Numbered from the stretch's first letter, positions 22,698 to 38,441 are shown. The stretch: 64,000 bases of DNA from an uncultured Gemmatimonadales bacterium (GCA_963707505.1 CAVPQB010000006.1:672001-736000), one strand, 5' to 3'. Made by a program: numbers and translations. The notes: generated by a model not told the origin, from the sequence alone.

Positions 22698-24308
22698 GTG
22701 TACGCAAGACCAGGGAACCAGCGGCTCGTCACATCCGTGTGCCTCGCGCTTCTGGTCGCGGCATGCGGTGGTGGTGGTGACGGACCGACGGCGCCTGGTC
22801 CTGGTCCCAGCCAGCCCGCTCGCAATGCGCCCGGCGTGCATGCCGTGCTCGGGGCTGGTATTACCGACACCATCGATGCGCAGCCTTTACAGGCGCTCGT
22901 CGTCGAGGTGCGGGGTCCTGACGGACAGCTGGCAACCGGAGCCGTCGTTCGGTTCCAGGCACAACCGCCTGCCGACACGACGCGCCGGAATGAACCCGCG
23001 GTGTCCGTATGCGCACTCACCGCACCGACGTGCGGGCAGTCTGGCTCCGTCTCGCAGTTTACGACTGATACCACGGATGCCCAGGGGCGCGCCAAAGCCA
23101 GTGTGAGGCTGGGACACGTTGCTGGCCGAGCCGTGGTGCAGCTGACCGTGCCGGAATTCGGAATGGAGGATTCCGCGACTTTCACTGTCCTGCCAGGAGT
23201 GGCCGCGCGCGTGCGCGCTCTGGCCACCGATACAGCGCTGGCCATCGGTGCCACAGCGAACCTGCGCGGCCACGTCGTGGACCGTTACAATAACAGCCGT
23301 CCGGAAACCGCCGTTCTCTCCGCGGGTCCCGGCAACGCGCTGACGATCGATGCCACTACTGGCGTTGTTACAGGTCGAGACATGGGTACTCAGTGGGTGT
23401 TCATGCACGCCCTGCAGTCCTCCGTTGACTCGACGAGGGTGCGTGTACTGCCAAGCGGGCGGCTGGTGGTATGGTCATCCAATGAGGCCGCGGTGCGACT
23501 CGTGAACTTGGATGGCAGCGTGCCGCGCACCCTCGTTACCAGCGTCGCGAGCGATCTGGGCGCTTTCCCGCGCTTCGACGCGGCGCGGAAGGCCATCACA
23601 ATGCATGACGGGTCACAGTTCAATGGCGGGGCGCCGAATAGCGTGATCGTGATCGACACGACCGGATCACCGCGTCGCGATGTCGGACCCGCTGTCGGGT
23701 TCGCTACCGTCATCGCAACTCGGCAACTTGCCGATGGCACGCTGCTCGTCGTGGGAAGTACCGTTGCGGGCGCGCCATGCGCGGGGTTTGCGCTATATCG
23801 CGTCGCGGCGGACAATTCACTTACGTGCGTGGCCGCCCTTCCGGGATTGGGCGCCACCTATGGCGCCGCGGACATCTCACACGACGGCACGCGCGTCGCA
23901 TATGTCGGCACCGATGCTTCGCGGCCATCCTCGTCGTTCGAGCTGCGCGTCCTCGACGTTGGCACCGGCGCGACGACAGTGCTCGAGCCCACTGCCAGCA
24001 CACCTCGCTGGTCTTCAAAGGACGATCGCGTGGCGTACCTCGTACCCAATCCGGCTGTATACAACGGCATCGATGGCTCGGCGGTGATCATCAATGCGGA
24101 TGGAACCGGACGCCAGACGTTGGGCACCTTCATCTTCAGTCCGGGCCTCGCGTGGTCGCCCGACGGAACGTACATCGTTGGGCGGAACAGCGGAACGTCT
24201 GACACTGCGCTGCGCGTGATACGCATCAGCGACGGCGCTGATGTGCTGCTGCGATTCCGGACCGCCACGGGTACTACTGCGGATTACTACCAGCCCGACT
24301 GGCGCTGA
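22698..24308 (+). CDS. Lipoprotein with Ig-like domains and TolB-like propeller
   Basis: Lipobox LVAAC, TTDAQGRA Ig motif, ISHDGTRVAY and WSPDG repeats. Confidence 0.75.
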   Translation: MYARPGNQRLVTSVCLALLVAACGGGGDGPTAPGPGPSQPARNAPGVHAVLGAGITDTIDAQPLQALVVEVRGPDGQLATGAVVRFQAQPPADTTRRNEPAVSVCALTAPTCGQSGSVSQFTTDTTDAQGRAKASVRLGHVAGRAVVQLTVPEFGMEDSATFTVLPGVAARVRALATDTALAIGATANLRGHVVDRYNNSRPETAVLSAGPGNALTIDATTGVVTGRDMGTQWVFMHALQSSVDSTRVRVLPSGRLVVWSSNEAAVRLVNLDGSVPRTLVTSVASDLGAFPRFDAARKAITMHDGSQFNGGAPNSVIVIDTTGSPRRDVGPAVGFATVIATRQLADGTLLVVGSTVAGAPCAGFALYRVAADNSLTCVAALPGLGATYGAADISHDGTRVAYVGTDASRPSSSFELRVLDVGTGATTVLEPTASTPRWSSKDDRVAYLVPNPAVYNGIDGSAVIINADGTGRQTLGTFIFSPGLAWSPDGTYIVGRNSGTSDTALRVIRISDGADVLLRFRTATGTTADYYQPDWR

Positions 24309-24374
24309 AGCGGCGCGTTTGCGTCGCATAACTGCGCGCTACTCCCGCGTCACTTTCAACATATATCCCACCCG

Positions 24375-24393
24375 GGGGCTTGCGGCAAGCCCG
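24375..24393 (+). promoter_or_regulatory. Rifamycin-associated element (RAE)-like palindrome
   Basis: GGGGCTTGCGGCAAGCCCG; perfect 8-1-8 inverted repeat GGGCTTGC-G-GCAAGCCC; 17/19 match to the RAE consensus as I recall it (GGGGCTTGCGGCAAGGCCC); about 65 bp upstream of a Rox-like gene. Confidence 0.75.
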
Positions 24394-24457
24394 GGGCCTC
24401 GTCGCAGATTCGTTGGCCGAAGCCAAAACCTTATCTGCGGAAAGCGAGGCACTAGAC

Positions 24458-25957
24458 ATGACTGAACATGCGGTGGTGATTGCCGGAGCCGGCCCGACTG
24501 GACTGATGCTGGCGGGCGAACTCGCGTTGGCCGGCGTCGACGTCGCGATTGTCGAGCGGCGCGCGAGCCAGGAGCTCGCCGGTTCGCGTGCAGGCGGTCT
24601 GCAGTCGCGCACGATCGAGGTGCTCGATCAGCGTGGCATTGCGGATCGGTTTCTTTCGGAAGGACAGATCGCGCAGGTCGGAGCGTTCGCGTCGGTAAAG
24701 TTGGACATCAGCGACTTTCCCACGCGGCACCCGTATGGGCTCGGGCTGTGGCAGAACCACATCGAGCGCATCCTCGCCGGCTGGGTAGATGAGCTGAATG
24801 TGCCGATCTATCGCGAACGCGAGGTGACGGGATTTGCGCAGGACAATACCGGCGTCGCCGTTCAACTGTCCAACGGCGAGTCGCTGCGGGCGGAATACCT
24901 TGTCGGGTGCGATGGAGGACGCAGTGTGATCCGCAAGACAGCCGGCATCGAGTTCCCCGGATGGGATCCGACGATGAGCAGCCTGATCGCCGAGGTCGAG
25001 ATGACCGAGCAGCCGGAATTGGGCGTCCACCGCACGGCCGCGGGCATGTACGCGTTCGGCAAACTGGAGTACGAGATCCGCGATGGCGAGATCATCTACA
25101 AGGATGGCGGGTCGATACGCGTAATGGTGCCCGAACCGCATGTAGGGAGCACCAGCGAACCAACGCTTGGCGATCTCAGCGCGGCGCTCATCGCCGTATG
25201 CGGGACGGATTACGGATTGCGCAGTGCCACGTCGATCTCCCGATTCACCGACATGACGCGCCAGGCCGCAACTTACCGCGACAGACGCGTGCTGCTGGCC
25301 GGAGACGCCGCGCACGTGCACTCGCCAGTGGGGGGACAGGGCCTCAACACCGGTGTGCAGGACGCGGTGAACCTTGGATGGAAGCTGGCCCAGGTCGTCA
25401 GGCGGACATCACCGGCAACACTGCTGGATACTTACCACGCCGAGCGCCATCCTGTCGGGGCACGCGTGCTGCGCACCACGATGGCACAAGTTGCGCTGCT
25501 CCGCACGGACGACCGCACCACGGCATTGGGCGATGTCGTCGCCGAGCTGCTCAGGATGGACGAGCCGCACAAGCGGTTCGCAGCGAGGATGTCCGGGCTG
25601 GACATCCACTACGACTTTGGGCCGGGGCACCCGCTGCTCGGACGCCGCATGCCCGATCTCGATCTGGTCACCGCCAACGGCACGTTGCGCGTCTTTACCC
25701 TGTTGCACGATGCTCGAGCCGTGTTGCTCAACCTCGGTGAGTCCGGCGGCTTCGACATCACTCCATGGGCGGATCGGGTGCAGTTGATGGACGCCAAGTA
25801 CGATGGTGTGTGGGAGCTTCCGGCCATTGGGGCGGTCACGGCGCCCACCGCAGTTTTGATCCGGCCTGACGGATATGTGGCGTGGGTGGGAGAGCTGACG
25901 CAGGTGGGACTCGTTGACGCGCTAGCCACCTGGTTCGGAACAGCGGACGCGGCGTAA
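24458..25957 (+). CDS. FAD-dependent monooxygenase, rifampin monooxygenase (Rox)-like class A flavoprotein
   Basis: GAGPTG, VGCDGGRS, LAGDAAHVHSPVGGQGLNTGVQDAVNLGWKLA, GHPLLGRRMPD, LIRPDGYVAW; layout resembles Rox/PgaE-type hydroxylases. Confidence 0.85.
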   Translation: MTEHAVVIAGAGPTGLMLAGELALAGVDVAIVERRASQELAGSRAGGLQSRTIEVLDQRGIADRFLSEGQIAQVGAFASVKLDISDFPTRHPYGLGLWQNHIERILAGWVDELNVPIYREREVTGFAQDNTGVAVQLSNGESLRAEYLVGCDGGRSVIRKTAGIEFPGWDPTMSSLIAEVEMTEQPELGVHRTAAGMYAFGKLEYEIRDGEIIYKDGGSIRVMVPEPHVGSTSEPTLGDLSAALIAVCGTDYGLRSATSISRFTDMTRQAATYRDRRVLLAGDAAHVHSPVGGQGLNTGVQDAVNLGWKLAQVVRRTSPATLLDTYHAERHPVGARVLRTTMAQVALLRTDDRTTALGDVVAELLRMDEPHKRFAARMSGLDIHYDFGPGHPLLGRRMPDLDLVTANGTLRVFTLLHDARAVLLNLGESGGFDITPWADRVQLMDAKYDGVWELPAIGAVTAPTAVLIRPDGYVAWVGELTQVGLVDALATWFGTADAA

Positions 25958-26018
25958 TGACGTCGCTGCAGTGGCGGACCACGAGTATCGTGACTGCCGT
26001 CGTCGCCACACGTACATT

Positions 26019-26768
26019 ATGACGATGCCAAGCCGCCATTCATCCATCATTGCACCACTCGTACTCGCGACGTTTCTGGCTCTGGGCTGTGCTACAAGCA
26101 CAGCTACCAACGGGACGACTGCTGATCACACGGTCAACGATGTCAACACGCCTCGCAGTTCCGCGGCCATCCTGCTCGACCCGACGGATCCCGAGTGGCG
26201 GCGCGCGGCGCCCGCCAGGTCGCATCTCCGCTTCGAGACGACCAAGGGGGTGTTCGTGCTCGAGCTGGTGCGCGCGTGGGGACCCATCGGCGCGGACCGC
26301 CTCTACAACCTTGCTCGGCTCGGCTACTACGACGATGCGCGCTTCCATCGCGTCGTACCCGGTTACATCGTGCAGTGGGGGATCAACGGAAGCCCGGCAG
26401 TCAACGCGGCGTGGAAAGACCAGCAGATCGTCGACGATCCACCCCGCTCGCACAACGTGCGTGGCACGTTCGCTTTCTCGCAGTTTCCGCCGGGGCCGGG
26501 TCATGCGAATACCCGCAACACGGAGATCTACATCAACCTCCGGGACAATCCGCGCAGCGACGCCGAGCCGTTCACGGTGCTGGGGACGGTGATCGAGGGG
26601 ATGAACGTCCTCGACAGCCTGTATTCAGGCTACGGCGAGAAGTCAGGCGGCGGTGTGCGGCAGGGCAAGCAGGGTCCGCTGATGGATGGAGGGAATGCGT
26701 TCATGGATCGGGAATACCCGCGGCTTGACCGGATATTGAGCGTGACGGTGACGCCGGTAGAGCGCTGA
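26019..26768 (+). CDS. Cyclophilin-type peptidyl-prolyl isomerase (lipoprotein)
   Basis: FETTKGVF, FHRVVPGYIVQWG, NVRGTFAF, GTVIEGM; lipobox LALGC. Confidence 0.88.
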   Translation: MTMPSRHSSIIAPLVLATFLALGCATSTATNGTTADHTVNDVNTPRSSAAILLDPTDPEWRRAAPARSHLRFETTKGVFVLELVRAWGPIGADRLYNLARLGYYDDARFHRVVPGYIVQWGINGSPAVNAAWKDQQIVDDPPRSHNVRGTFAFSQFPPGPGHANTRNTEIYINLRDNPRSDAEPFTVLGTVIEGMNVLDSLYSGYGEKSGGGVRQGKQGPLMDGGNAFMDREYPRLDRILSVTVTPVER

Positions 26769-26868: not shown

Positions 26869-27750
26869 TCACGTTGAGTGGATCGCGTTATCCGCTGCGT
26901 GCGCCGCATGAGTAGTTGCGGCGCCTCTCCATGCACCGATCGTGTTGCCGCGCTCGTTAGTGTAGTAACCCTGAATGGTGTAGAGCCCCGGGTTTGTCGG
27001 CGGACCCCATTTCAAGAGTATCCACGCTTCCAGGTCGCCATTTTCCTCGCCATCGTCAGCAACCCAGCCCTGACCGGGAACCTTGTCGGTGGCGGCTTCG
27101 GCTAATTCGTGAGCGTAAACGGCGGTGAAATCCCCGATCAATCCGCCACATCCCTGACACTTGGTAGAGGGAAGCACCGCGTACGCGACGGACGTGCCCA
27201 CATGGGTGAAGGCATCATGGTAACCGCAAAACGAATCACACGACTTGGATCCGTCGCTGTCGAACTCGGACGTCACGCCGTTCGGCAGAATCAGCATGAA
27301 CAACGAGTTGTCGTCAGCGTGCAGGATACCGGCATCGATGAGCTGTGCAACCGTCTGCTGAGCCTGGGAGTCCTTGAAGATTTTCTGTCCTTTTAGTGAA
27401 GGACCGTCGATGGAGCCGAGATACTTTCCCGACCCGGTTCCGTAGTGGAGTTGGTGGAGAGGATCGAGATAGCCGTTCTCCACGATCGCCTTGCTGAATC
27501 CCTCGACGAAGGCACGATTGCCCCAGAACGGGCCGAGATACACGTTCGTGGTATGCGGTTCCCCGATTTGACTCCCGGCGACGTTGTGAAATCCCTTGGC
27601 GCCCCCCGGCCCGGTTGGCGTCTGCAGCGGCCTGTTCGCCAGATCGGCGGCGTCGTCGTCGTGCAAGAGGTGCGGCCTAACGGAATTGCGCGTCGGCACG
27701 ATCTGAACGACGTTCCGCGGACCGATGCCAACCAGAGGATTCCGTGACAT
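26869..27750 (-). CDS. Hypothetical protein, Phi-1/EXORDIUM-like
   Basis: FCGYHDAF, YAVLP, AHELAEAATD, GEENGDL; GGAGG RBS. Confidence 0.55.
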   Translation of the reverse strand: MSRNPLVGIGPRNVVQIVPTRNSVRPHLLHDDDAADLANRPLQTPTGPGGAKGFHNVAGSQIGEPHTTNVYLGPFWGNRAFVEGFSKAIVENGYLDPLHQLHYGTGSGKYLGSIDGPSLKGQKIFKDSQAQQTVAQLIDAGILHADDNSLFMLILPNGVTSEFDSDGSKSCDSFCGYHDAFTHVGTSVAYAVLPSTKCQGCGGLIGDFTAVYAHELAEAATDKVPGQGWVADDGEENGDLEAWILLKWGPPTNPGLYTIQGYYTNERGNTIGAWRGAATTHAAHAADNAIHST

Positions 27751-28807: not shown

Positions 28808-30913
28808 TCAACTGCAGAAAAAGAGATTGCACATCCATACCGTACGCACGCTAGGGTCATAGCCGTTTCGTTGCGGTATTGCTCCCCACGACCACTGGAC
28901 CGGGACCGGGTCGAATGGTCCGCGTAGCCCTGCGAACTTGCTGCGCTCATCCGGTGTGATGTTGGGGGAATAATATCCAGGTATTGGCTGGCAGCCTGGT
29001 GGCCCTGTGTTTGCCGGCGACGCTCCCGATGTTGCAGCGGGTGCTGTCGCTGCCGATGAGGCCGACGCTGTTGTCGGCGATCCAGTCACACTATATATAC
29101 ACGCACTGTTATAACTGGCAGGCTTCTCCATACAGTACATCAAGTAGTCAATGCCGTCAGCTGGGATGAAGGTGTTGTCTGCCCGGGTCACCGTGCAATC
29201 GCGTATTGCGGTCGCGACCGTAGCGTGCGTGAATGCGACGTTGTCGCTGTAGTACTGGTAGCCGGGTCCGCTGCGGTACACCGTCCGCTGCCCCGTACCG
29301 TCGCCCAGGTGCAGTAGCGTCGACGCGATCGCGCCTTCCGTGCTGGGGCCGATTGGCGTAAAGCCCGTGCCGACTGGCGGTCCGGCGAAATCACCGTTGT
29401 TGAACTCCGGATACAGAGTGTCACCGAGCGTGGCACCCCAGAGAGCAACAGCCTGGTAATCGGCGACTCCTTCGCGTAAGGCGCATTGGTAATTCGTCAC
29501 CAAGGTGTAACTGTGGTGCGCGCAAGAGTATTGGTTGGCATTGGCGTCCGTGATGCGTATCCGTCCCAGAGCCTTCTCGTGGACAGCGTGCCCATATTCG
29601 TGTGCAGCTACAAAGAGGCCGTACGAGCCCGTGGCGTAGCCCTCGTGGATCGTGATCGAGTCGGTGCGTGGATCATAGTTGGCCAGAGTAGTGTCCTGTG
29701 GTCCGTCGACGAAATTGACACCAATCGCGCCTCTCGAAACCGCGAACACCTGCCGCGACCTGCTCACAGTCTGGCTCAAGTTGTCGAAGGTCTCTGCCTG
29801 CGATGGGGCGCCGACCCAGTAACCCCCGGTATATGTCCCGCACATGTCAACGGCAGCATTGGCTTGGTCGGGCCAGTAACCAAGATCCGCTTGCGGCATC
29901 GAGGGCCGGTTCGTTACCAGCACTGTCACAACCAAGTTGGTGGTGCTTGCCGACATCTGGAGATAGCCGCGCTCGTACGAAGGCGGGCAGTTCAACGTGA
30001 AGTTGCCGTTGGCGTCGGTCTGTGTCACCGAATTGAACCCGCTCCCTCGCGTGTCGAATATCCCGACCTGCGCGTTGGGAAGGCTCACGGAGTAGCCGGC
30101 GCGGGCGTTGTAGTACATGAGCGTCCCCGAGAATTGCGAGGGTGACGGGCCTGGTGGCGGTGGCGGGTCGCAGGTCGGGTCGTTCGGATCGCAGATTGGA
30201 ATCAGTGCCGGCTGCGCTGAGAGGCCAGCCGCAGCAGATGGAGCTGCTGCGTACTGAAGCACCGGGTCGACCGTCTTGTTGGCCTTCCGAAAGACTTGAA
30301 GATCACCGAGCGAGTTGATCACCTCACCACCGGTACTCGTCACATTTACCCATACGACCTTCGTAGCCGCGGTGTTCTGTATCATGCCATCGGCATCGAT
30401 TTCGGGGTCGTCGCTGGTGACTGATGCGCGCACGTAGTACAGCCCAGGCACAGGGAACGTCACACTCACAGCCCGTCGAACCTGCCTCGGTCCCTGCTGT
30501 GCTGCGCCGCGCCAGGACAGCTGCACACCTGGATTACGCCGCGCGGAGCTATGCATTCCGTGCGTCGAGCGATAGGCAATCTCGGTGATCGCTGGCACCT
30601 CGAGCTCGGCATGCGCACGCGTGGTCGAGATGTTCACATCGGCTGATACTTCAAGCGTGACCGGCGTTCCAACCCGAACGGCAGAGACCGCGTTGACACT
30701 GATCGGGCCGAACCGTTGTCGGACCGGCGGCTCGATGATGATACCTGCTTGTACCTGCGCGGCGGGGGAGATCGCGAGGTCAGCGCGCGCTCCGGGCACG
30801 TTGTTCGGAGCAACTGGAGAATCTTTCGAGCAGCTAGCTATCAGAACGCCCGCGATTATGGCAATCCCAGCTAGAGGCAGGCGGGTCAAGCATTTCCCAA
30901 ATATGCTTCGCAT
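28808..30913 (-). CDS. Secreted lipoprotein zinc metalloprotease (zincin/gluzincin-like)
   Basis: Lipobox LIASC, Pro linker, AHEYGHAVHE and downstream REGVADY. Confidence 0.7.
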   Translation of the reverse strand: MRSIFGKCLTRLPLAGIAIIAGVLIASCSKDSPVAPNNVPGARADLAISPAAQVQAGIIIEPPVRQRFGPISVNAVSAVRVGTPVTLEVSADVNISTTRAHAELEVPAITEIAYRSTHGMHSSARRNPGVQLSWRGAAQQGPRQVRRAVSVTFPVPGLYYVRASVTSDDPEIDADGMIQNTAATKVVWVNVTSTGGEVINSLGDLQVFRKANKTVDPVLQYAAAPSAAAGLSAQPALIPICDPNDPTCDPPPPPGPSPSQFSGTLMYYNARAGYSVSLPNAQVGIFDTRGSGFNSVTQTDANGNFTLNCPPSYERGYLQMSASTTNLVVTVLVTNRPSMPQADLGYWPDQANAAVDMCGTYTGGYWVGAPSQAETFDNLSQTVSRSRQVFAVSRGAIGVNFVDGPQDTTLANYDPRTDSITIHEGYATGSYGLFVAAHEYGHAVHEKALGRIRITDANANQYSCAHHSYTLVTNYQCALREGVADYQAVALWGATLGDTLYPEFNNGDFAGPPVGTGFTPIGPSTEGAIASTLLHLGDGTGQRTVYRSGPGYQYYSDNVAFTHATVATAIRDCTVTRADNTFIPADGIDYLMYCMEKPASYNSACIYSVTGSPTTASASSAATAPAATSGASPANTGPPGCQPIPGYYSPNITPDERSKFAGLRGPFDPVPVQWSWGAIPQRNGYDPSVRTVWMCNLFFCS

Positions 30914-30971
30914 TACAGAACTCCGCGTCCAGGGTGGTTGATTAACTACTCCATCAACGACAACCGCAGCT

Positions 30972-31003
30972 TCGGATGATTCTCTACGCTCGGATGATTC
31001 TCT
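30972..31003. repeat. 14-bp perfect direct repeat upstream of the zincin gene
   Basis: TCGGATGATTCTCT at 30972 and 30990. Confidence 0.7.
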
Positions 31004-31466
31004 CTTGCGCCAGACAGTAAACAGAGCCCGCAGAGCACGAGTTCGGTTCTGGAAGGTCCCCCCAAACGCGAAAATGCGCCAGACAGGGTGTCTGCGCAAG
31101 ATGGCGTCGGGATTGGTTGGTAAACGCTTGAATAGCGCCGGCATTCAGAGCAAAAATGTTCGAGGCTCAACGCGCAAACTTTCCGCGGACGATCCGGGGA
31201 AGTTTGGAAGGCATCCTCATCATCCACGTCGCCATTCTCGGATTACAGAATTGTGGAGATGCGCCAGAGTGCTTGCGACTTTCGCATGGCGCGAGTCGAA
31301 GTCATTGCGAATGGTCGGTTCTTGGCCAAAGACGATGCGAACAACAGGCTCTGCGCGTACGCACGCGTCGTTCAGCCCGTCGCAGTGCCTTTGGCTGTAG
31401 TCGCAGCAACTTAGACCAATTCGCATCCTCTTTGTCATCCGACACCCCCGTAAACATCTGCCGCAA

Positions 31467-31515: not shown

Positions 31516-32103
31516 ATGGAAAGGCGCGAAGAACTCCTCCGGGCTGCCGCCCGAGTCTATGCTCGGCACGGATACCGGGGCTCGACCACCCGACGCATCG
31601 CCGACGAGGCGGGGGTCAATGAGATAACCATTTTCCGGCAATTCGGGACCAAGGATACGCTCATCCATGAGGCCATCGCCTCGTCGGGGATGAGTGGTCC
31701 GCTAGTCGAGCTTCCCAAAGTGCCGGTTGATCCCCAACGTGAGCTGCAGGAATGGGCGGCTGCGCTCCGCTCTCATATATGTGCCTCCCGTTCACTCATG
31801 CGACGCTGCATGAGCGAGCGCGAGGAACACCCCCAGTTGAGCGCTTCAGCCAATCGTGGTCCGATGCGTGCGGCGGCCGCTCTGCAGGCATACTTCGGAC
31901 GGCTTCAGCAGCACGGCTTCATCAAGGGCGACGTCAATGCCCGTGCGGCGGCGGCGATGTTGATCGGTACGATCTTTTCCGATGCAATGGGCCGAGATGT
32001 GATGCCGGACATCTATCCGAGCACGCCCGCGGCCGCCGCTGAACAGTACACGGCTCTCATTCTAAGAGCGATCGGTCTCTCGCCGCGCACTGCGGACGCA
32101 TAG
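31516..32103 (+). CDS. TetR/AcrR family regulator
   Basis: GYRGSTTRRIADEAGVNEITIFRQFGTK HTH. Confidence 0.93.
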   Translation: MERREELLRAAARVYARHGYRGSTTRRIADEAGVNEITIFRQFGTKDTLIHEAIASSGMSGPLVELPKVPVDPQRELQEWAAALRSHICASRSLMRRCMSEREEHPQLSASANRGPMRAAAALQAYFGRLQQHGFIKGDVNARAAAAMLIGTIFSDAMGRDVMPDIYPSTPAAAAEQYTALILRAIGLSPRTADA

Positions 32104-32136
32104 TCAGACACAAAACCAGATTCATTCGACAACTCG

Positions 32137-33880
32137 ATGATACCTACTACGGCCACAATCACCCGCACAAACCGGATTCAACGCGCGCTGGCCGGCGGTC
32201 TGCTTGCATCGTCTGCGCTCGTCGCAGCGGCGATGCCAGTAACGTTGCGCGCGCAGCAGCCGATCACGCACGCAGACTCCAACGCGGCGACGCCGGCGCG
32301 ACCACTGTCGCTCGGCGATGCCGTCGATATTGCGCAGAGGCAGAGTCAGGTCGTGCACATCGCCAACAACGCGATACAGCGCGCACAGGGTGGCCAGTAT
32401 CAGGCGCGCAGCGGTCTCTTCCCGCAACTGAACGCAACCGCGAACTACACGCGCACGCTTGCGTCACAATTTTCCAAGGCGTTCTCATCTTCACCGAGCA
32501 CCGCACCAAGCGGTCCGGCGGGCCCGTGTAATCAATACCTGTTCAACGGCGACTCATCCGAGCTGGCGCGCGTCGCTGGTCTCGAGAATTACGCGCGGTG
32601 CACGGTCGCGGGCCATAGCGCGAGCGATGCTTCCACCGGCGGAATCGATTTCAGCAAGGTCGGTTTCGGTTCCGTGAACGGCTACACGCTCGGCCTCTCA
32701 GGCTCGCAGAACATATTCACTGGTGGTCGTCTCTCAGGTCAGATCCAGGCGGCCAATGCAACACAACGCTCGGCGCGCATCGAGCTCACCGCACAGCAGG
32801 CGCAGCTTCGTCTCGACGTGACGTCGGCGTACTATGACGCTGCATTGTCGGATCGTCTGCTGGCCATCGCGCAATCGACGCTGAAGCAGACACAGGCCCT
32901 GCTGGCGCAGACTCAGCTGCAACAAAAAGTGGGCAACACCAGCGAGTTCGATCTGTTGCGTGCGCAGGTTTCGGTGAGTAATCAGCTTCCTGTGGTGATC
33001 CAGGCTCAGAGCGCGCGCGAGGTTGCATATCTCAAGCTCAAGCAGCTGCTGAATCTTCCGTTCGAGCAGCGACTCGCGCTCACCACGTCGGTCGAGGATT
33101 CCACAGCTGCACCGCCCGGCGTCGATCTCGCCCGCGCATCGTCGCCGGATACGCTCACGGATCATCGCGCGCCTGTGCGGGAAGCCGTCGAGGCTGTTAC
33201 GGCCCAGAAGGGACAGTTGAAGGTCGCGCGCTCGGAGCGGATTCCGACGCTGCAGCTCTCGACTGCGTACAGCAGAGTCGCATATCCCAGCATCCGGGCT
33301 CCCGTCGCTGGCGGATTTCAGCCCCAACTGGACGGTAACGCTGTCGACGTCGTTCCCGATCTTCCAGGGCGGACGCATTCACGGCGACAAGATGGTGGCC
33401 GAGTCGAATGTGCGAGATGCACAGGCGCGCCTGGAGCAGGCACGCGAGGGTGCTGCGCTGGACTCGCGCGTCGCACTCAACACACTGCGCCAGGCTGAAG
33501 CAACTTTCGAAGCAAGCGCTGGCACCGCATCACAGGCGCAGCGCGCTTATGAGATTGCCGAAGTGAGATACAAGGAAGGGATCTCGACGCAGCTCGAGTT
33601 GAACGACACACGGAATCAACTTGCGCAGGCGCTGGTGAACAGGGCGCAGGCATCACGCGACGTACAGGTCGCGCGCGTGCGACTCGCACTGTTGCCGGAT
33701 CTGCCGGTGCAGACTGCGACAGCGGGGCAGACCAATCTTTCACAACAGCAACAGCAACAGCAGCAGCAAGCGCAACAACAGACACAACCGCAGACGACGC
33801 AGCCGGCGGGGGCGCCGGGTCAGAGCACACCAACCGCGGCCGGCACATCGCCGACTGGACAATCAGGGATCAATCCATAA
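32137..33880 (+). CDS. TolC-family outer-membrane efflux protein (apparent frameshift near 33290)
   Basis: OEP repeats (LSLGDAV, FPQLN, IFTGGR; YKEGISTQLE in second frame); poly-Gln tail. Confidence 0.85.
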
Positions 33881-35020
33881 ATGCGACGCACTTACACATA
33901 TCTCCCACTTGCCCTGGCAACGGTTACGCTCGCGACAGGCTGCAAGCGCAAGACGGCTGAAGCGGCAGATACAGTTCAGCAGCTGGTCGTCGGCACCGAG
34001 AACATCGCGATCGCGCGACACGGATCGGTGACGAACGGACCCGCGATCTCGGGATCGCTCGACGCCGAGCTGAACGCGACTGTGCGCGCGCAGATCGCGG
34101 GCTCGATCATCTCCACCGACGCCGACGTTGGACAGTCCGTCCGAAAGGGTCAGCTACTCGGCCGCATCGACGCGTCCGGTTTGCAGGACGCATATCTGAG
34201 CGCCAAGTCGGCCGTTTCGTCGGCCGAAGCAACGGCAGCTGTTGCGCAACGCAATCTGCAGCGCAGCCAGACGCTGCTGCAGGCCGGTGCGATCGCGCAG
34301 CGGGATCTCGAGACTGCTCAGACTCAGGCGTCGAGTGCACAGGCCGCACTCGAAGATGCAAAGTCCCGGCTCGCAACCGCGCAGAAGAATTTCGATAACA
34401 CGCGGATCACCGCCCCGTTCGACGGCATCGTGAGTCAGAAAAGTGTGAGCCCCGGGGATGTAGTGCAGCCGGGCGGTGCACTGTTCACCGTCGTCGATCC
34501 GTCGACGATGCGGCTCGTCGCAGCGGTTCCCTCGGATCAGCTGTCGATGCTTCGCGTAGGCACCGACGTGACGTTCACAGTGACCGGATATCTCGGTCAG
34601 GAATTTCACGGCAAGGTGACGCGCGTGAGCCCGGCCGTCGACCCGACGACGCGTCAGGTGCAGATCATCGTATCGATTCCGAACAAGAGCCACACGCTCA
34701 TCACGGGACTCTATGCGGATGGCCGCATCTCCAGCCGGACGGAGGAAGGAATCGTCGTTCCGCTTTCGGCGGTCGATACGCGCATGCAGCGTCCCGCGGT
34801 CGTCGAGATAAAGGGTGGCAAGGTTACACGCGTCGACGTCGCGCTCGGGATGCGCGATCCGACGAGCGAGACCGTGCAGATCACAAACGGAGTCGCAGTT
34901 GGGGACACGCTGCTGATTGCGGCTGCCCAGGGCATCACGCCAGGTACACCGGTACGCGTGCAGCCACCGCCATCGGATCAGAGCGCGCAAACCAACACCA
35001 CGCCAAACAGCGGTCGCTAG
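33881..35020 (+). CDS. RND efflux periplasmic adaptor (MFP)
   Basis: Lipobox ATGC, VRKGQLL, ITAPFDGIV, VDPTTR. Confidence 0.92.
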   Translation: MRRTYTYLPLALATVTLATGCKRKTAEAADTVQQLVVGTENIAIARHGSVTNGPAISGSLDAELNATVRAQIAGSIISTDADVGQSVRKGQLLGRIDASGLQDAYLSAKSAVSSAEATAAVAQRNLQRSQTLLQAGAIAQRDLETAQTQASSAQAALEDAKSRLATAQKNFDNTRITAPFDGIVSQKSVSPGDVVQPGGALFTVVDPSTMRLVAAVPSDQLSMLRVGTDVTFTVTGYLGQEFHGKVTRVSPAVDPTTRQVQIIVSIPNKSHTLITGLYADGRISSRTEEGIVVPLSAVDTRMQRPAVVEIKGGKVTRVDVALGMRDPTSETVQITNGVAVGDTLLIAAAQGITPGTPVRVQPPPSDQSAQTNTTPNSGR

Positions 35021-35030
35021 AGGCTTCACG

Positions 35031-38000
35031 ATGTTCATCTCAGACTTCGCGATCAAGCGTCCCATTGTCACAGTGGTGATAATGGTCGCGCTCGTGATCT
35101 TCGGACTGTTCTCCGCGTTCAATACGGACGTGGATGAGCTACCCGACATTCAGCAGCCGATCGTGTTCGTTGCCGTTCCGTATCCCGGCGCGTCGCCGGA
35201 TCAGGTCGAGCGTGAAGTGGTCGATCGAATGGAAGAGGCGTTCCAGGGTCTCAACGGTATCGATCAGATCACATCGACGTCAACGGACGGCTTCGCGCAG
35301 ATCATCGTGCAGTTCGTTTACTCCAAGCCGACCGACGAGGCGGCGCAGGATGTACGCGATGCGATCTCCGGAATTCGCGACAAGCTCCCGGTCGAGATGA
35401 AGGAGCCGATCATCAAGAAGTTCGATCCGGCTGATCAGCCGATCGTGTCGCTCACTCTTTCGTCCAACACGCTCAAGCCGAACGAGCTGACGATTCTGGC
35501 GGACCCGGACATCACGCGCCAGCTTCAGGGACTGTCAGGAGTGGCGCAGGTGACATTGTCGGGTGGCGTCGACCGCGAAATTTCGGTCGACGTGATTCCA
35601 GCCCGTCTCAATGCGGCGAAGGTGAGCGTGTCGGACGTCGTCAACGCACTCAACGCGCAGAATCTCGCGGTTCCGGTCGGCATGATCACGGGTTCGCTGG
35701 AAGAGCGCTCGATCCGGCTGCGTGGGCGTATCGAGGACGCAAGAGACTTCGGTCAGCTCGTCGTCGCGCAACGGGGCGGGCAGGTGATCCGTCTCGCGGA
35801 CGTCGCGAACGTATATGACGGATCCGCGGAGCAGCGATCGCTCGCTCTATTCAACGGCGTCGAAGGTATCGGTATCGACATCACGAAGTCGAAGGGGAGC
35901 AGCACGACGCGCGTGAGCGATGAGATCAACGAGCGCGTAAAGGAGATAAGAAAGACCCTGCCGGCGGGCGTGACACTCGACGTCGTGCGCGATGCGGGGC
36001 CGCGCGTGACAAATTCGGTGCGGAACGTCGAGGAGGCGCTCGTCGAGGGCGCAATCCTTACGGTGATCGTCGTGTTCCTCTTCCTCAACTCGTGGCGTTC
36101 GACCGTGATCACCGGTCTTGCACTGCCGGTTTCCGCGATCTCGGCGTTCATCGCAGTCCATGCCTTCGGGTTCACGCTCAACACGATGTCGCTGCTCGGC
36201 CTTTCGCTCGCGATCGGAATACTGATCGACGACGCGATAGTAGTGCGAGAGAACATCGTGCGGCACATCGAGATGGGTGAAGACCATTTCACGGCTGCGC
36301 ACACGGGTACCGACGAAATCGGTCTCGCTGTAACAGCGACGACGCTGTCGATCATGGCGGTGTTCGTTCCGATCGCGTTCATGAGCGGCATATCCGGACA
36401 GTGGTTCCGGCCGTTCGCGCTGACGATTGCATGCGCAGTTCTTGTCTCGCTCTTCGTCTCGTTCTCGCTCGATCCGATGCTCTCGGCGTACTGGCCCGAT
36501 CCCGCGATCGAGGCGCACGAGCATCGCAGCTGGATCTCGCGCAAGCTGGACACGTTCAACAAGTGGTTCGACAGACAGGCGGATAACTACAAGGGCGTGA
36601 TTGCGTGGGCGCTGGATCATCGCGCCGATATGGTCGCGATCTCGATTGGTGTGTTCTTCGCGAGCATTCTGATTCCCGCGAAGGGGTTGTTCGCGGCGCT
36701 GACGCTGCTCGCCGGCGTACTGCTGATCGTATGGTTGATGTCGTTCAACTATCCGAAATCAGCCCTTGGTACCACTCTCAAGAGCGTCATCGCCGTCGGC
36801 GTGTTCGTGGGCTCTCTGGTGTTCGGTCTCACACTGCCAGAGCCCGGCTGGGCCAAGCTGGGGGGCGGTTTCATTCCTGATTCGGACAACTCCGAGCTGA
36901 ATGTCTCGGTCGAAGCGCCGCCAGGATCGAACATCGATTACACGCACATAAAGGCCGAGGAGATCGGGCGCATCATTCGCACGCACAAGGAAGTTGCATA
37001 TACGTACACGACTGTTGGCACTGCGACGGGTTCGGGCGAGGTGGATGTCGGGAGCATCTACGTCAAGCTGGTTCCCAAGAATGAGCGATCCATATCGCAG
37101 GGCGACCTGAGCAACATCATCCGTGCAGAGATTTCCCATGTCGCCGGTGTTACCGCGTACACGTTCAACAGCAGCTTCGCCGGTAATCAGAAGCAGATTC
37201 AGGTTCAGATTCGCGGCAACGATGCCGCACAACTGAATGCGGTAGCGGAGCAGATGGAAGTCGAGGTGCGGAAGGTTCCGGGGGCGGCCGACGTGGGACT
37301 GTCGACGAAGGGCCTCAAGCCGGAGCTCGACGTGCAGCTGAATCGCGGTCTCGCCGGAACACTCGGCATCACCGTTGGGCAGCTCGCGCAGGCGCTGCGG
37401 CCGGCGTTCGCCGGTGTGCAGGCTGGCAGCTGGGTGGATCCAACAGGAAAGACGCGCGACGTTACGGTTCGTCTTCCAGCGGCTTCGCGACAGAACGCTT
37501 CGGATCTGCGGCAGTTGCCGATCAGTGTGCCGGCCGCGAACGGCGCCTCTTCGGCACAGTCGTCCACCGCTGCTGCGACTCCGATCAATTCGGGACCGCA
37601 GACGATTCCGCTCGGCCAGATCGCGACCGTGCGTCTGACAACCGGGCCGGCGCAGATCGACCATCTGGACGAGGACAAGGTCGTCACGGTGGGTGTCAAT
37701 CCGCAGGGACGTCCATTGAGCGAGGTGTCTGCTGACGTGAATCGCGCGATCGCGAAGGTTCCATTGCCGCCCGGCGTGCACCTGTCGCAGGGCGGGCAGG
37801 TGAAGGATCAGAACGAGGTGTACGGCGCGATTGTCGCCGCGCTCGGCCTCGCGATTCTGTTGATGTATCTCATTCTCGTGGTGCAGTTCGGATCGTTCCT
37901 GGATCCGCTTGCGATCATGTTGTCACTTCCGTTGTCGCTGATCGGAGTCGTGCTCGCGTTGCTTGTAACAGGCGGCACGCTGAACATCATGTCGATGATC

Positions 38001-38441
38001 GGTGTGATTCTGTTGATGGGAATCGTCGCGAAGAATGCGATTCTGCTGGTGGACTTCGCCAAGTGGACGCGTGAATCGAAGAAGATCACGTTGCGCGAGG
38101 CGCTCATCGAAGCTGGCAGGGTACGTCTGCGTCCGATTCTCATGACGACGTTCGCGCTCATCGCTGGCATGATTCCGGTAGCGCTCGGAATCGGCGAGGG
38201 CGCCGACTTCCGTGCGCCGCTGGGACGTGCGGTGATAGGTGGCGTCATAACGTCGACGTTGCTCACGTTGATCGTCATCCCGACGTTCTACGAGATCCTC
38301 GACGAATGGCGCGAGAAGCTCGTGCATGCGTTTGGGCGTGGGACGGAGGGTGAGCACGAGCATGTGCCGGAGCACGCGCCGCGGGCCGAGCCTGGCATGG
38401 GAGCGCCGCCGAGACCAGCCATGGGCGAGCCGACACCGTAG
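35031..38441 (+). CDS. RND efflux permease (AcrB/HAE1-like)
   Basis: MFISDFAIKRP, GILIDDAIVVRENI, KNAILLVDF, RLRPILMT. Confidence 0.95.
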   Translation: MFISDFAIKRPIVTVVIMVALVIFGLFSAFNTDVDELPDIQQPIVFVAVPYPGASPDQVEREVVDRMEEAFQGLNGIDQITSTSTDGFAQIIVQFVYSKPTDEAAQDVRDAISGIRDKLPVEMKEPIIKKFDPADQPIVSLTLSSNTLKPNELTILADPDITRQLQGLSGVAQVTLSGGVDREISVDVIPARLNAAKVSVSDVVNALNAQNLAVPVGMITGSLEERSIRLRGRIEDARDFGQLVVAQRGGQVIRLADVANVYDGSAEQRSLALFNGVEGIGIDITKSKGSSTTRVSDEINERVKEIRKTLPAGVTLDVVRDAGPRVTNSVRNVEEALVEGAILTVIVVFLFLNSWRSTVITGLALPVSAISAFIAVHAFGFTLNTMSLLGLSLAIGILIDDAIVVRENIVRHIEMGEDHFTAAHTGTDEIGLAVTATTLSIMAVFVPIAFMSGISGQWFRPFALTIACAVLVSLFVSFSLDPMLSAYWPDPAIEAHEHRSWISRKLDTFNKWFDRQADNYKGVIAWALDHRADMVAISIGVFFASILIPAKGLFAALTLLAGVLLIVWLMSFNYPKSALGTTLKSVIAVGVFVGSLVFGLTLPEPGWAKLGGGFIPDSDNSELNVSVEAPPGSNIDYTHIKAEEIGRIIRTHKEVAYTYTTVGTATGSGEVDVGSIYVKLVPKNERSISQGDLSNIIRAEISHVAGVTAYTFNSSFAGNQKQIQVQIRGNDAAQLNAVAEQMEVEVRKVPGAADVGLSTKGLKPELDVQLNRGLAGTLGITVGQLAQALRPAFAGVQAGSWVDPTGKTRDVTVRLPAASRQNASDLRQLPISVPAANGASSAQSSTAAATPINSGPQTIPLGQIATVRLTTGPAQIDHLDEDKVVTVGVNPQGRPLSEVSADVNRAIAKVPLPPGVHLSQGGQVKDQNEVYGAIVAALGLAILLMYLILVVQFGSFLDPLAIMLSLPLSLIGVVLALLVTGGTLNIMSMIGVILLMGIVAKNAILLVDFAKWTRESKKITLREALIEAGRVRLRPILMTTFALIAGMIPVALGIGEGADFRAPLGRAVIGGVITSTLLTLIVIPTFYEILDEWREKLVHAFGRGTEGEHEHVPEHAPRAEPGMGAPPRPAMGEPTP

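Follow-up and report, generated by a model that had tools for sequence, protein, structure and literature searches.

We analysed a 64,000-nt stretch of DNA from an uncultured Gemmatimonadales bacterium (GCA_963707505.1 CAVPQB010000006.1:672001-736000; hereafter the window, with positions counted from its first letter) in which a palindrome resembling the rifamycin-associated element (RAE) precedes a flavin monooxygenase gene. The gene (24458-25957, plus strand) encodes a 499-residue class A flavin monooxygenase with the Pfam domains FAD_binding_3 and Rng_hyd_C, and its product matches the NCBIfam model NF005303 (PRK06834) over residues 1-497 with 890.6 bits (cut-off 625), which places it within that subfamily. 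The motifs of class A enzymes are present as GAGPTG (GxGxxG), CDGG (DG) and LAGDAAH (GD), and the fold is of the PHBH type. A Shine-Dalgarno-like GAGG (24446-24449, plus strand) lies 8 nt ahead of the ATG at 24458; an in-frame TTG at 24380 offers an alternative start for the open reading frame. The 19-bp palindrome, GGGGCTTGCGGCAAGCCCG, occupies 24375-24393 (no strand assigned), and the ATG lies 64 nt past it. Its 11-bp core (24379-24389, likewise unstranded) is 79 nt ahead of the ATG, with a -10 spacing equal to that of Mycobacterium smegmatis arr.

GGGGCTTGCGGCAAGCCCG agrees with the four RAE 19-mers given in bioRxiv 2025.08.06.668190 at 17, 16, 18 and 17 of 19 bases. The site has the CTTGCGGCAAG core of RAE palindromes, is intergenic and close 5' of a start codon, lies over the gene-facing -35 region, and has the flanks and spacing of true rox loci. 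The flanks were scored with a 70-column matrix trained on 43 metagenomic sites located ahead of rox, rgt, rph, helR or arr. Circularity affects the core columns in part, the training sites having been found with a window-like 17-mer, but not the flank columns. With this matrix the window site scored 67.7 bits and the next best of 7.3 million genome positions 1.6 bits. The 3.66-Mb genome contains the 11-bp core three times, with RAE flanks at the window copy only. A preliminary description of this DNA had noted the palindrome ahead of the monooxygenase and proposed matrix scoring and a genome scan, and its reading of the site is borne out by both; the window element is almost certainly a genuine RAE. 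Judged from its sequence, the locus is thus an RAE module outside Actinobacteria, positioned before a PRK06834 monooxygenase that is not Rox.

The palindrome lies 66 nt past the stop codon of an upstream gene on the same strand (22698-24308, plus; no Pfam or NCBIfam match) and folds with -16.3 kcal/mol, as would a chance GC-rich hairpin or a terminator of that gene, and stop codons inside rpoB could point to an actinobacterial misassembly. There is no U-tract, however, the folding z-score is -0.57, and a 67.7-bit site unique in the genome, same-genus synteny and a GC content at third codon positions (GC3) like that of the neighbours speak against chance or misassembly; we regard these explanations, to which we give a very remote chance, as effectively refuted. 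A structured RNA or terminator was also rejected as a candidate (best Rfam match E 0.43, far below threshold; folding z-scores -0.71 to +0.35), and no terminator-like site was found in the window between 24200 and 26900.

The host is very likely a member of the Gemmatimonadaceae, the label of the closest named locus (L031), which has 90% amino-acid identity and shares the downstream cyclophilin gene. Loci of the same genus (L002, L003, L004, L028) are 80-89% identical in nucleotide sequence over 1.9-3.8 kb, crossing gene boundaries, and the monooxygenase GC3 of 0.77 is similar to that of neighbouring genes; a chimera, which the preliminary description had raised together with the contig taxonomy, is therefore unlikely. 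Contig C5 of the genome holds a BamA-like match (E 2e-67) together with an LpxC-like one (E 9e-35), both below cut-offs. The host, a bacterium of Gram-negative type, lies outside the described range of RAEs, the Actinobacteria. Elsewhere in the 83%-complete assembly tblastn did not detect arr, rgt, rph or helR, and the rifampicin pocket of the host RpoB reads as what we take to be wild type. The rpoB match itself (G000:C3:393600-398123) contains in-frame stops suggestive of assembly indel errors.

The conserved unit around the palindrome is, on the evidence of aligned sites, about 65 bp long and organized as a mirror promoter pair instead of a 19-bp element. Facing the gene, a -35-like TTGCGG (24380-24385, plus strand) is followed after a 19-bp spacer by a -10-like CAGATT (24405-24410), as the preliminary description had recorded, with a transcription start predicted at 24417 (core+38) from the geometry of M. 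smegmatis arr; an RAE likewise covers the -35 of M. smegmatis helD P2 (PMC10719064). Overlooked in that description was the mirror image on the minus strand: a -35-like TTGCCG (24383-24388), overlapping the inward -35 by 3 bp, a -10-like TATGTT (24358-24363) again at a 19-bp spacer, and a predicted start at a G at 24351 (core-28). A promoter scan limited to 16-18 bp spacers did not detect the window site. Over 45 orthologue sites the conservation profile, which delimits an extended module at 24345-24425 (no strand assigned), is symmetric around the core centre (A+27/T-17, T+31/A-21), and the stretch from -34 to +45 has 50-59 of its 80 bases in common with each of six rox modules from actinobacteria. 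In these 45 sites the upstream columns are pyrimidine-rich and contain no TAnnnT, and a general sense P1 promoter of the kind present at M. smegmatis helD was rejected.

The same arrangement was found in a further collection of sites, obtained by scanning 2/64 of a metagenome collection with the 17-mer (119 loci; 112 after removal of six edge cases and one duplicate). NAnnnT at a spacer of 19 was present in 90 of the 112 cores in the forward direction, in 90 in the reverse direction and in 84 in both, whereas other spacers from 13 to 25 gave at most 12 matches, except for reverse 25 (49). Both arms were also present at 6/6 rox loci and at 27/30 mycobacterial arr loci (the best 30 of 78 matches). 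The two arms are not equivalent. TAnnnT occurred on the outward arm in 81 cores and on the inward arm in 10; the GC fraction of the discriminator was 0.45 outward versus 0.83 inward, the purine fraction of the initial transcribed bases 0.83 versus 0.56, and the outward +1 was a G at 74/83 two-armed sites. Variant cores retain CTT...AAG and differ in the centre, one symmetric form being CTTCATGAAG. This form, a perfect 10-bp palindrome with both arms present, is found at L075, L091 and L100, with similar cores at L033, L058, L063, L069 and L082; it differs from the exact RAE, so searches for the exact RAE would overlook such loci.

Published start sites in M. smegmatis permit a direct comparison with the predicted geometry. 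Counting back from the arr start codon, the oligonucleotides in PMC7882622 put the start site at 31 nt, CACAAT at 43-38 nt and the core at 69 nt, which gives a 19-bp spacer and an inward start at core+38. On the minus strand, a high-confidence start at 1290484, assigned to the divergent MSMEG_1220 (Martini 2019, PMC6448022), falls exactly at core-28, the outward start predicted by the mirror. The helD geometry was derived from review text and from a close relative (G475) whose spacing differs; the starts there are an orphan at 2250780(-) and one at 2250847(+), 67 nt apart (PMC6448022). At genome-average density, a start would fall within 2 nt of a predicted position, on the strand in question, with a chance probability of about 0.002 per locus; in intergenic DNA this value is higher. 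These mapped starts indicate that the outward promoter is active in uninduced M. smegmatis; by analogy it may be active at the window locus, where it would fire antisense into the 3' end of the upstream gene.

PRK06834 was the commonest gene behind the 112 metagenomic cores (32 cases, 6 of them behind an rgt-like piece and 11 above the NCBIfam cut-off), followed by helR (14), rgt alone (10), rph (8), rox (7) and arr (6); a further six cores preceded unplaced monooxygenases and 29 nothing that was assigned. The reference classes were checked by NCBIfam for 40 of 102 open reading frames, and some assignments derive from short fragments. A PRK06834 gene, another monooxygenase or a known rifamycin gene was located behind 73/84 two-armed sites versus 1/16 armless ones. 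In 301 genomes of the phylum of the window, the mirror pattern was found at 20 loci, spread over 18 genomes, against 4 hits for the reversed control: 13 precede PRK06834, the window included, three precede rph-like genes and one an rgt-like gene, and three look like chance. One genome labelled Gammaproteobacteria (G064) carries the module before PRK06834 and, with the full mirror, before two arr-like genes (L115, L126). The RAE circuit therefore appears to extend beyond its described range, one of the two possibilities named in the preliminary description.

Several other observations were made at individual cores. A short rgt-like 5' piece separates the element from the gene that follows, PRK06834, rph or helR, at L155, L166, L202, L232, L246 and L261, and such a piece is also present at L164, L203, L210 and L211; these remnants look as if the module had been reused through deletion of rgt. 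Fragments too short to place at L154, L177, L201, L206, L230 and L241 may represent a third monooxygenase type ("mono3"). At L151, L208 and L220, cores with NAnnnT on both arms precede a chloramphenicol-phosphotransferase-like gene, an unassigned open reading frame and an ABC ATPase, respectively, which are candidate new cargo or chance. At L352 (G704) a full module precedes a PRK06834 gene that is divided between two reading frames.

Orthologues of the monooxygenase were collected from 61 related genomes and the best 80 of 565 GTDB hits. With a matrix call defined as a site of at least 15 bits, the element was present at 43/90 loci (the Sinorhizobium meliloti locus included; duplicates and short or partial loci dropped), and under a looser post-hoc rule at 53/89 (shuffles, 0.2), so that the element lies upstream of many orthologues, where its absence would have told against the preliminary description. 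By phylum the looser rule gave 12/14 loci in Gemmatimonadota, 6/6 in Acidobacteriota, 24/48 in Actinomycetota, 4/5 in Gammaproteobacteria, 4/5 in Alphaproteobacteria and 2/8 among those labelled Chloroflexota. Among the isolates with the element that have names are Mesorhizobium kowhaii, Bradyrhizobium spp. and Dyella silvatica, with variant cores in the last three cases (looser rule); the Mesorhizobium site and one Bradyrhizobium site fall below the matrix threshold. On the poorly resolved PRK06834 gene tree the phyla are intermixed. This intermixing and the resemblance of the -34 to +45 stretch to rox modules suggest that gene and element moved together, the other possibility named in the preliminary description, and the two were likely acquired jointly by horizontal transfer. 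Of about 93 orthologue loci, at most 5 have any one neighbouring gene family in common, which implies that no regulator travels with the module. The pattern is that expected of a mobile module of small size to which no regulator is linked.

How such a module could respond to rifamycin is suggested by its anatomy. The palindrome would supply overlapping -35 boxes to two back-to-back promoters with 19-bp spacers, whose starts are mapped in M. smegmatis only. The outward promoter would be the stronger, carrying heavy polymerase traffic and producing no useful mRNA, and the inward promoter would be weak. At low rifamycin, drug-bound polymerase may become trapped on the outward promoter, unable to escape, and the trapped enzyme may act as an activator that lets drug-free polymerase fire the suboptimal long-spacer inward promoter. 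The induced enzyme would then hydroxylate the naphthalene core of the drug using FAD, NAD(P)H and O2, as Rox does, a role we infer from its association with the element. In Streptomyces venezuelae, induction is 15- to 50-fold at 1/16 of the minimal inhibitory concentration (bioRxiv 2021.05.10.443488), which suggests that rare drug-bound polymerase is captured and its signal amplified; such strong induction at low drug favours trapped polymerase as the activator of the inward promoter. For the sensing step we give trapped polymerase on the outward promoter about an even chance, ahead of a hypothetical dimeric activator, which is possible though distinctly less so, and of an RNA- or topology-based relief, which is less probable again.

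A precedent for sensing without a regulator is the Bacillus subtilis PhelD/Panti-helD alarm (PMC12802891), in which rifampicin is detected by polymerase trapped on an opposed antisense promoter. The RAE pair resembles it in having an opposed, stronger promoter with a 19-bp spacer and a short antisense RNA, and it too would sense the drug through polymerase. The B. subtilis promoters, however, are convergent, 39 bp apart, and respond by relief of interference (PMC12802891), whereas the RAE promoters are divergent and share their -35 region rather than facing each other with separate footprints; relief of collision therefore cannot be the mechanism.

MerR-activated promoters typically have 19-bp spacers. 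The same spacer length at the RAE speaks for a reading in which the resistance module is as described above and the palindrome is the operator of an activator that is dimeric and responds to rifamycin, such as a MerR-like protein untwisting the spacer. A common regulator has been proposed (bioRxiv 2021.05.10.443476, PMC10719064, PMC12802891), and deletion of half of the RAE abolishes complementation (bioRxiv 2021.05.10.443476); that deletion, however, also takes away the -35 (PMC10719064). An activator would leave unexplained why a consensus outward -10 and a +1 G are kept where transcription from the arm yields a short RNA that is soon terminated, or runs into the end of a different gene. Nor does a regulator gene accompany the module, the centre of the core varies, and in the host genome, 83% complete, neither an RbpA above cut-off nor a stand-alone CarD was found. 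We consider this reading doubtful overall. It is more improbable still that the outward promoter acts by its RNA or by transcription-driven supercoiling, with rifamycin lifting repression. A short hairpin and U-run terminator does lie past the outward start at 4/6 rox loci and 22/78 two-armed metagenomic sites, but it is present at 6/34 PRK06834 loci only and absent at 28/34 as well as in the window; and sub-inhibitory drug binds few polymerases, so that the outward transcription lost would hardly yield the induction seen in S. venezuelae.

Apart from the sensing step, we find the element likely to be inducible in the window host, and on balance somewhat favour the view that the window carries a rifamycin-inducible drug-inactivation module. 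The most comprehensive form of the proposal, that the RAE is a regulator-free sensor activated by a jammed outward polymerase, is hence portable across phyla, and has as its top environmental cargo a large, unannotated second family of rifamycin-destroying monooxygenases (PRK06834), is tentative and in our judgement falls short of even chances.

A number of observations weigh against this interpretation. The chief objection is one of space: with a 3-bp overlap of the -35 boxes, polymerases on the two promoters may block each other, and a trapped polymerase could repress. When the B. subtilis promoters were moved close enough to clash, induction was lost (PMC12802891). The outward arm at the window has no terminator hairpin. 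In M. smegmatis, the plus-strand arr 5' end at 1290550 is flagged ambiguous in Martini Table S14 (PMC6448022), and helD has an additional, much stronger sense start at 2250785 (PMC6448022); the helD RAE lies about 20 bp past this stronger start, over the -35 of the second start (PMC10719064). Arr-like loci of one other actinobacterial order had 0/24 sites of at least 15 bits, and a matrix site was found at 1/3 HelD_MYCSM loci only; across helD loci overall, most of them not of the mycobacterial HelD type, 14/15 had no site. About 40-50% of PRK06834 orthologues lack the element (36/89 by the looser rule, including 6/8 of those labelled Chloroflexota). Among these is S. meliloti SMa1939 (L309, on pSymA), a 75%-identical orthologue whose start site is 207 nt upstream (PMC3616915). 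For expression evidence, no RNA run came up among the listed sequencing runs, and the best DNA share was 0.18. S. meliloti 1021 was considered as an expression test case and rejected, SMa1939 being an element-free counter-example. The SMa1939 orthologue occurs on 42 Sinorhizobium plasmid records. The element is missing from the one that was checked, which has an annotated small RNA start a short way upstream.

The remaining reservations concern the enzyme. The preliminary description had called it a divergent Rox-like protein; it is a class A flavin monooxygenase as stated, but an identity with Rox does not hold. It scores 458.6 bits with NF033145 (rif_monoox, Rox), below the equivalog cut-off of 800, and in the phylogeny that had been proposed PRK06834 and Rox form separate clades (SH-aLRT 100 each), placing it outside Rox, although a joint clade of the two was not rejected in an approximately unbiased test on 46 of the 95 rows of the larger tree (p 0.32). 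Like Rox/RIFMO (S. venezuelae 5VQB/6BRD; Nocardia farcinica 5KOW/5KOX) it is a PgaE-like three-domain enzyme (Z 44-46, rmsd 1.8-2.4 Å) encoded behind the same element; unlike them it has 41-46% identity to these proteins and replaced pocket residues, mostly smaller ones. PMC11375879 lists 14 pocket residues for RIFMO; six are identical here, four conservative or similar and four different, with H46 changed to Q, V93 to G and P97 to W, and with several of the non-identical positions being Gly or Ala; the comparison was read from the PDB-hit alignment, in which the R201 region aligns poorly, and several of the positions vary within Rox. Taken by itself, the protein thus does not show rifamycin activity. 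No function or activity of any PRK06834 protein was found in the literature searched, which did not extend to the 2014 PNAS paper, the final Mol Cell versions or theses.

These features would also suit a passenger element, that is, a real RAE whose promoter is ordinary or silent in the host, ahead of a monooxygenase for another aromatic polyketide or xenobiotic. The best PDB sequence match is the anhydrotetracycline hydroxylase OxyS (4K2X; 383 bits, with Rox next at 351), and with an AlphaFold model of pLDDT 90 OxyS and RIFMO are tied as structural matches (Z 45.5-45.7); the altered pocket and the element-free orthologues point the same way. Yet no gene was found behind RAE cores more often than PRK06834, both arms are retained in scattered lineages of several phyla, and the other classified genes behind the element belong to rifamycin-resistance families. 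OxyS and PgaE/CabE/MtmOIV are, moreover, biosynthetic, whereas the window gene lies behind an RAE with no biosynthetic cluster among the neighbours scanned. We therefore regard a passenger as unlikely and consider it quite probable that the PRK06834 enzyme acts on rifamycins.

RAEs have been described as actinobacterial, with the mechanism unknown (bioRxiv 2021.05.10.443488, PMC12802891, bioRxiv 2021.05.10.443476, PMC10719064, bioRxiv 2025.08.06.668190), and the bioinformatic surveys, in the parts available, cover Actinobacteria only or Actinobacteria and Firmicutes. The window differs from these accounts in its host, in PRK06834 not being among the described targets, and in a unit of about 65 bp. 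In a January 2026 paper RAE sensing is still treated as unsolved, and a transcription factor yet to be identified is assumed (PMC12802891). No account of an RAE outside Actinobacteria or of an outward RAE promoter was found in the literature searched, from which the bioRxiv supplements were absent in addition to the sources listed above. The main text of a Mycobacterium abscessus Tn-seq preprint, as far as it was available, does not contain the word "regulator", and supplements for S. avermitilis and S. lividans gave no match for the motif or for rifampin/rifamycin. The question of RAE sensing has been open since 2014, and the mirror anatomy together with the published M. smegmatis starts makes it simply testable. 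In non-tuberculous mycobacteria, the efficacy of rifamycins is reduced by arr and helR, both under RAE control. Should PRK06834 proteins prove to inactivate these drugs, a widespread family has been overlooked in the environmental resistome, Gram-negative phyla included; these proteins are currently labelled "hypothetical protein" or "FAD-dependent monooxygenase".

Downstream of the monooxygenase, a cyclophilin-type peptidyl-prolyl isomerase gene (25971-26768, plus strand) is kept in close relatives only and is probably not part of the system. It is followed on the minus strand by a 293-residue open reading frame without Pfam match (26872-27750) and by one of 778 residues (28811-31144), also without Pfam match, that has a signal-peptide-like start and a zinc-protease-like HEYGH motif. 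Further along, positions 31516-38441 hold a TetR regulator (Pfam) and then TolC-like, RND adaptor-like and AcrB-like efflux genes, as read from their translations.
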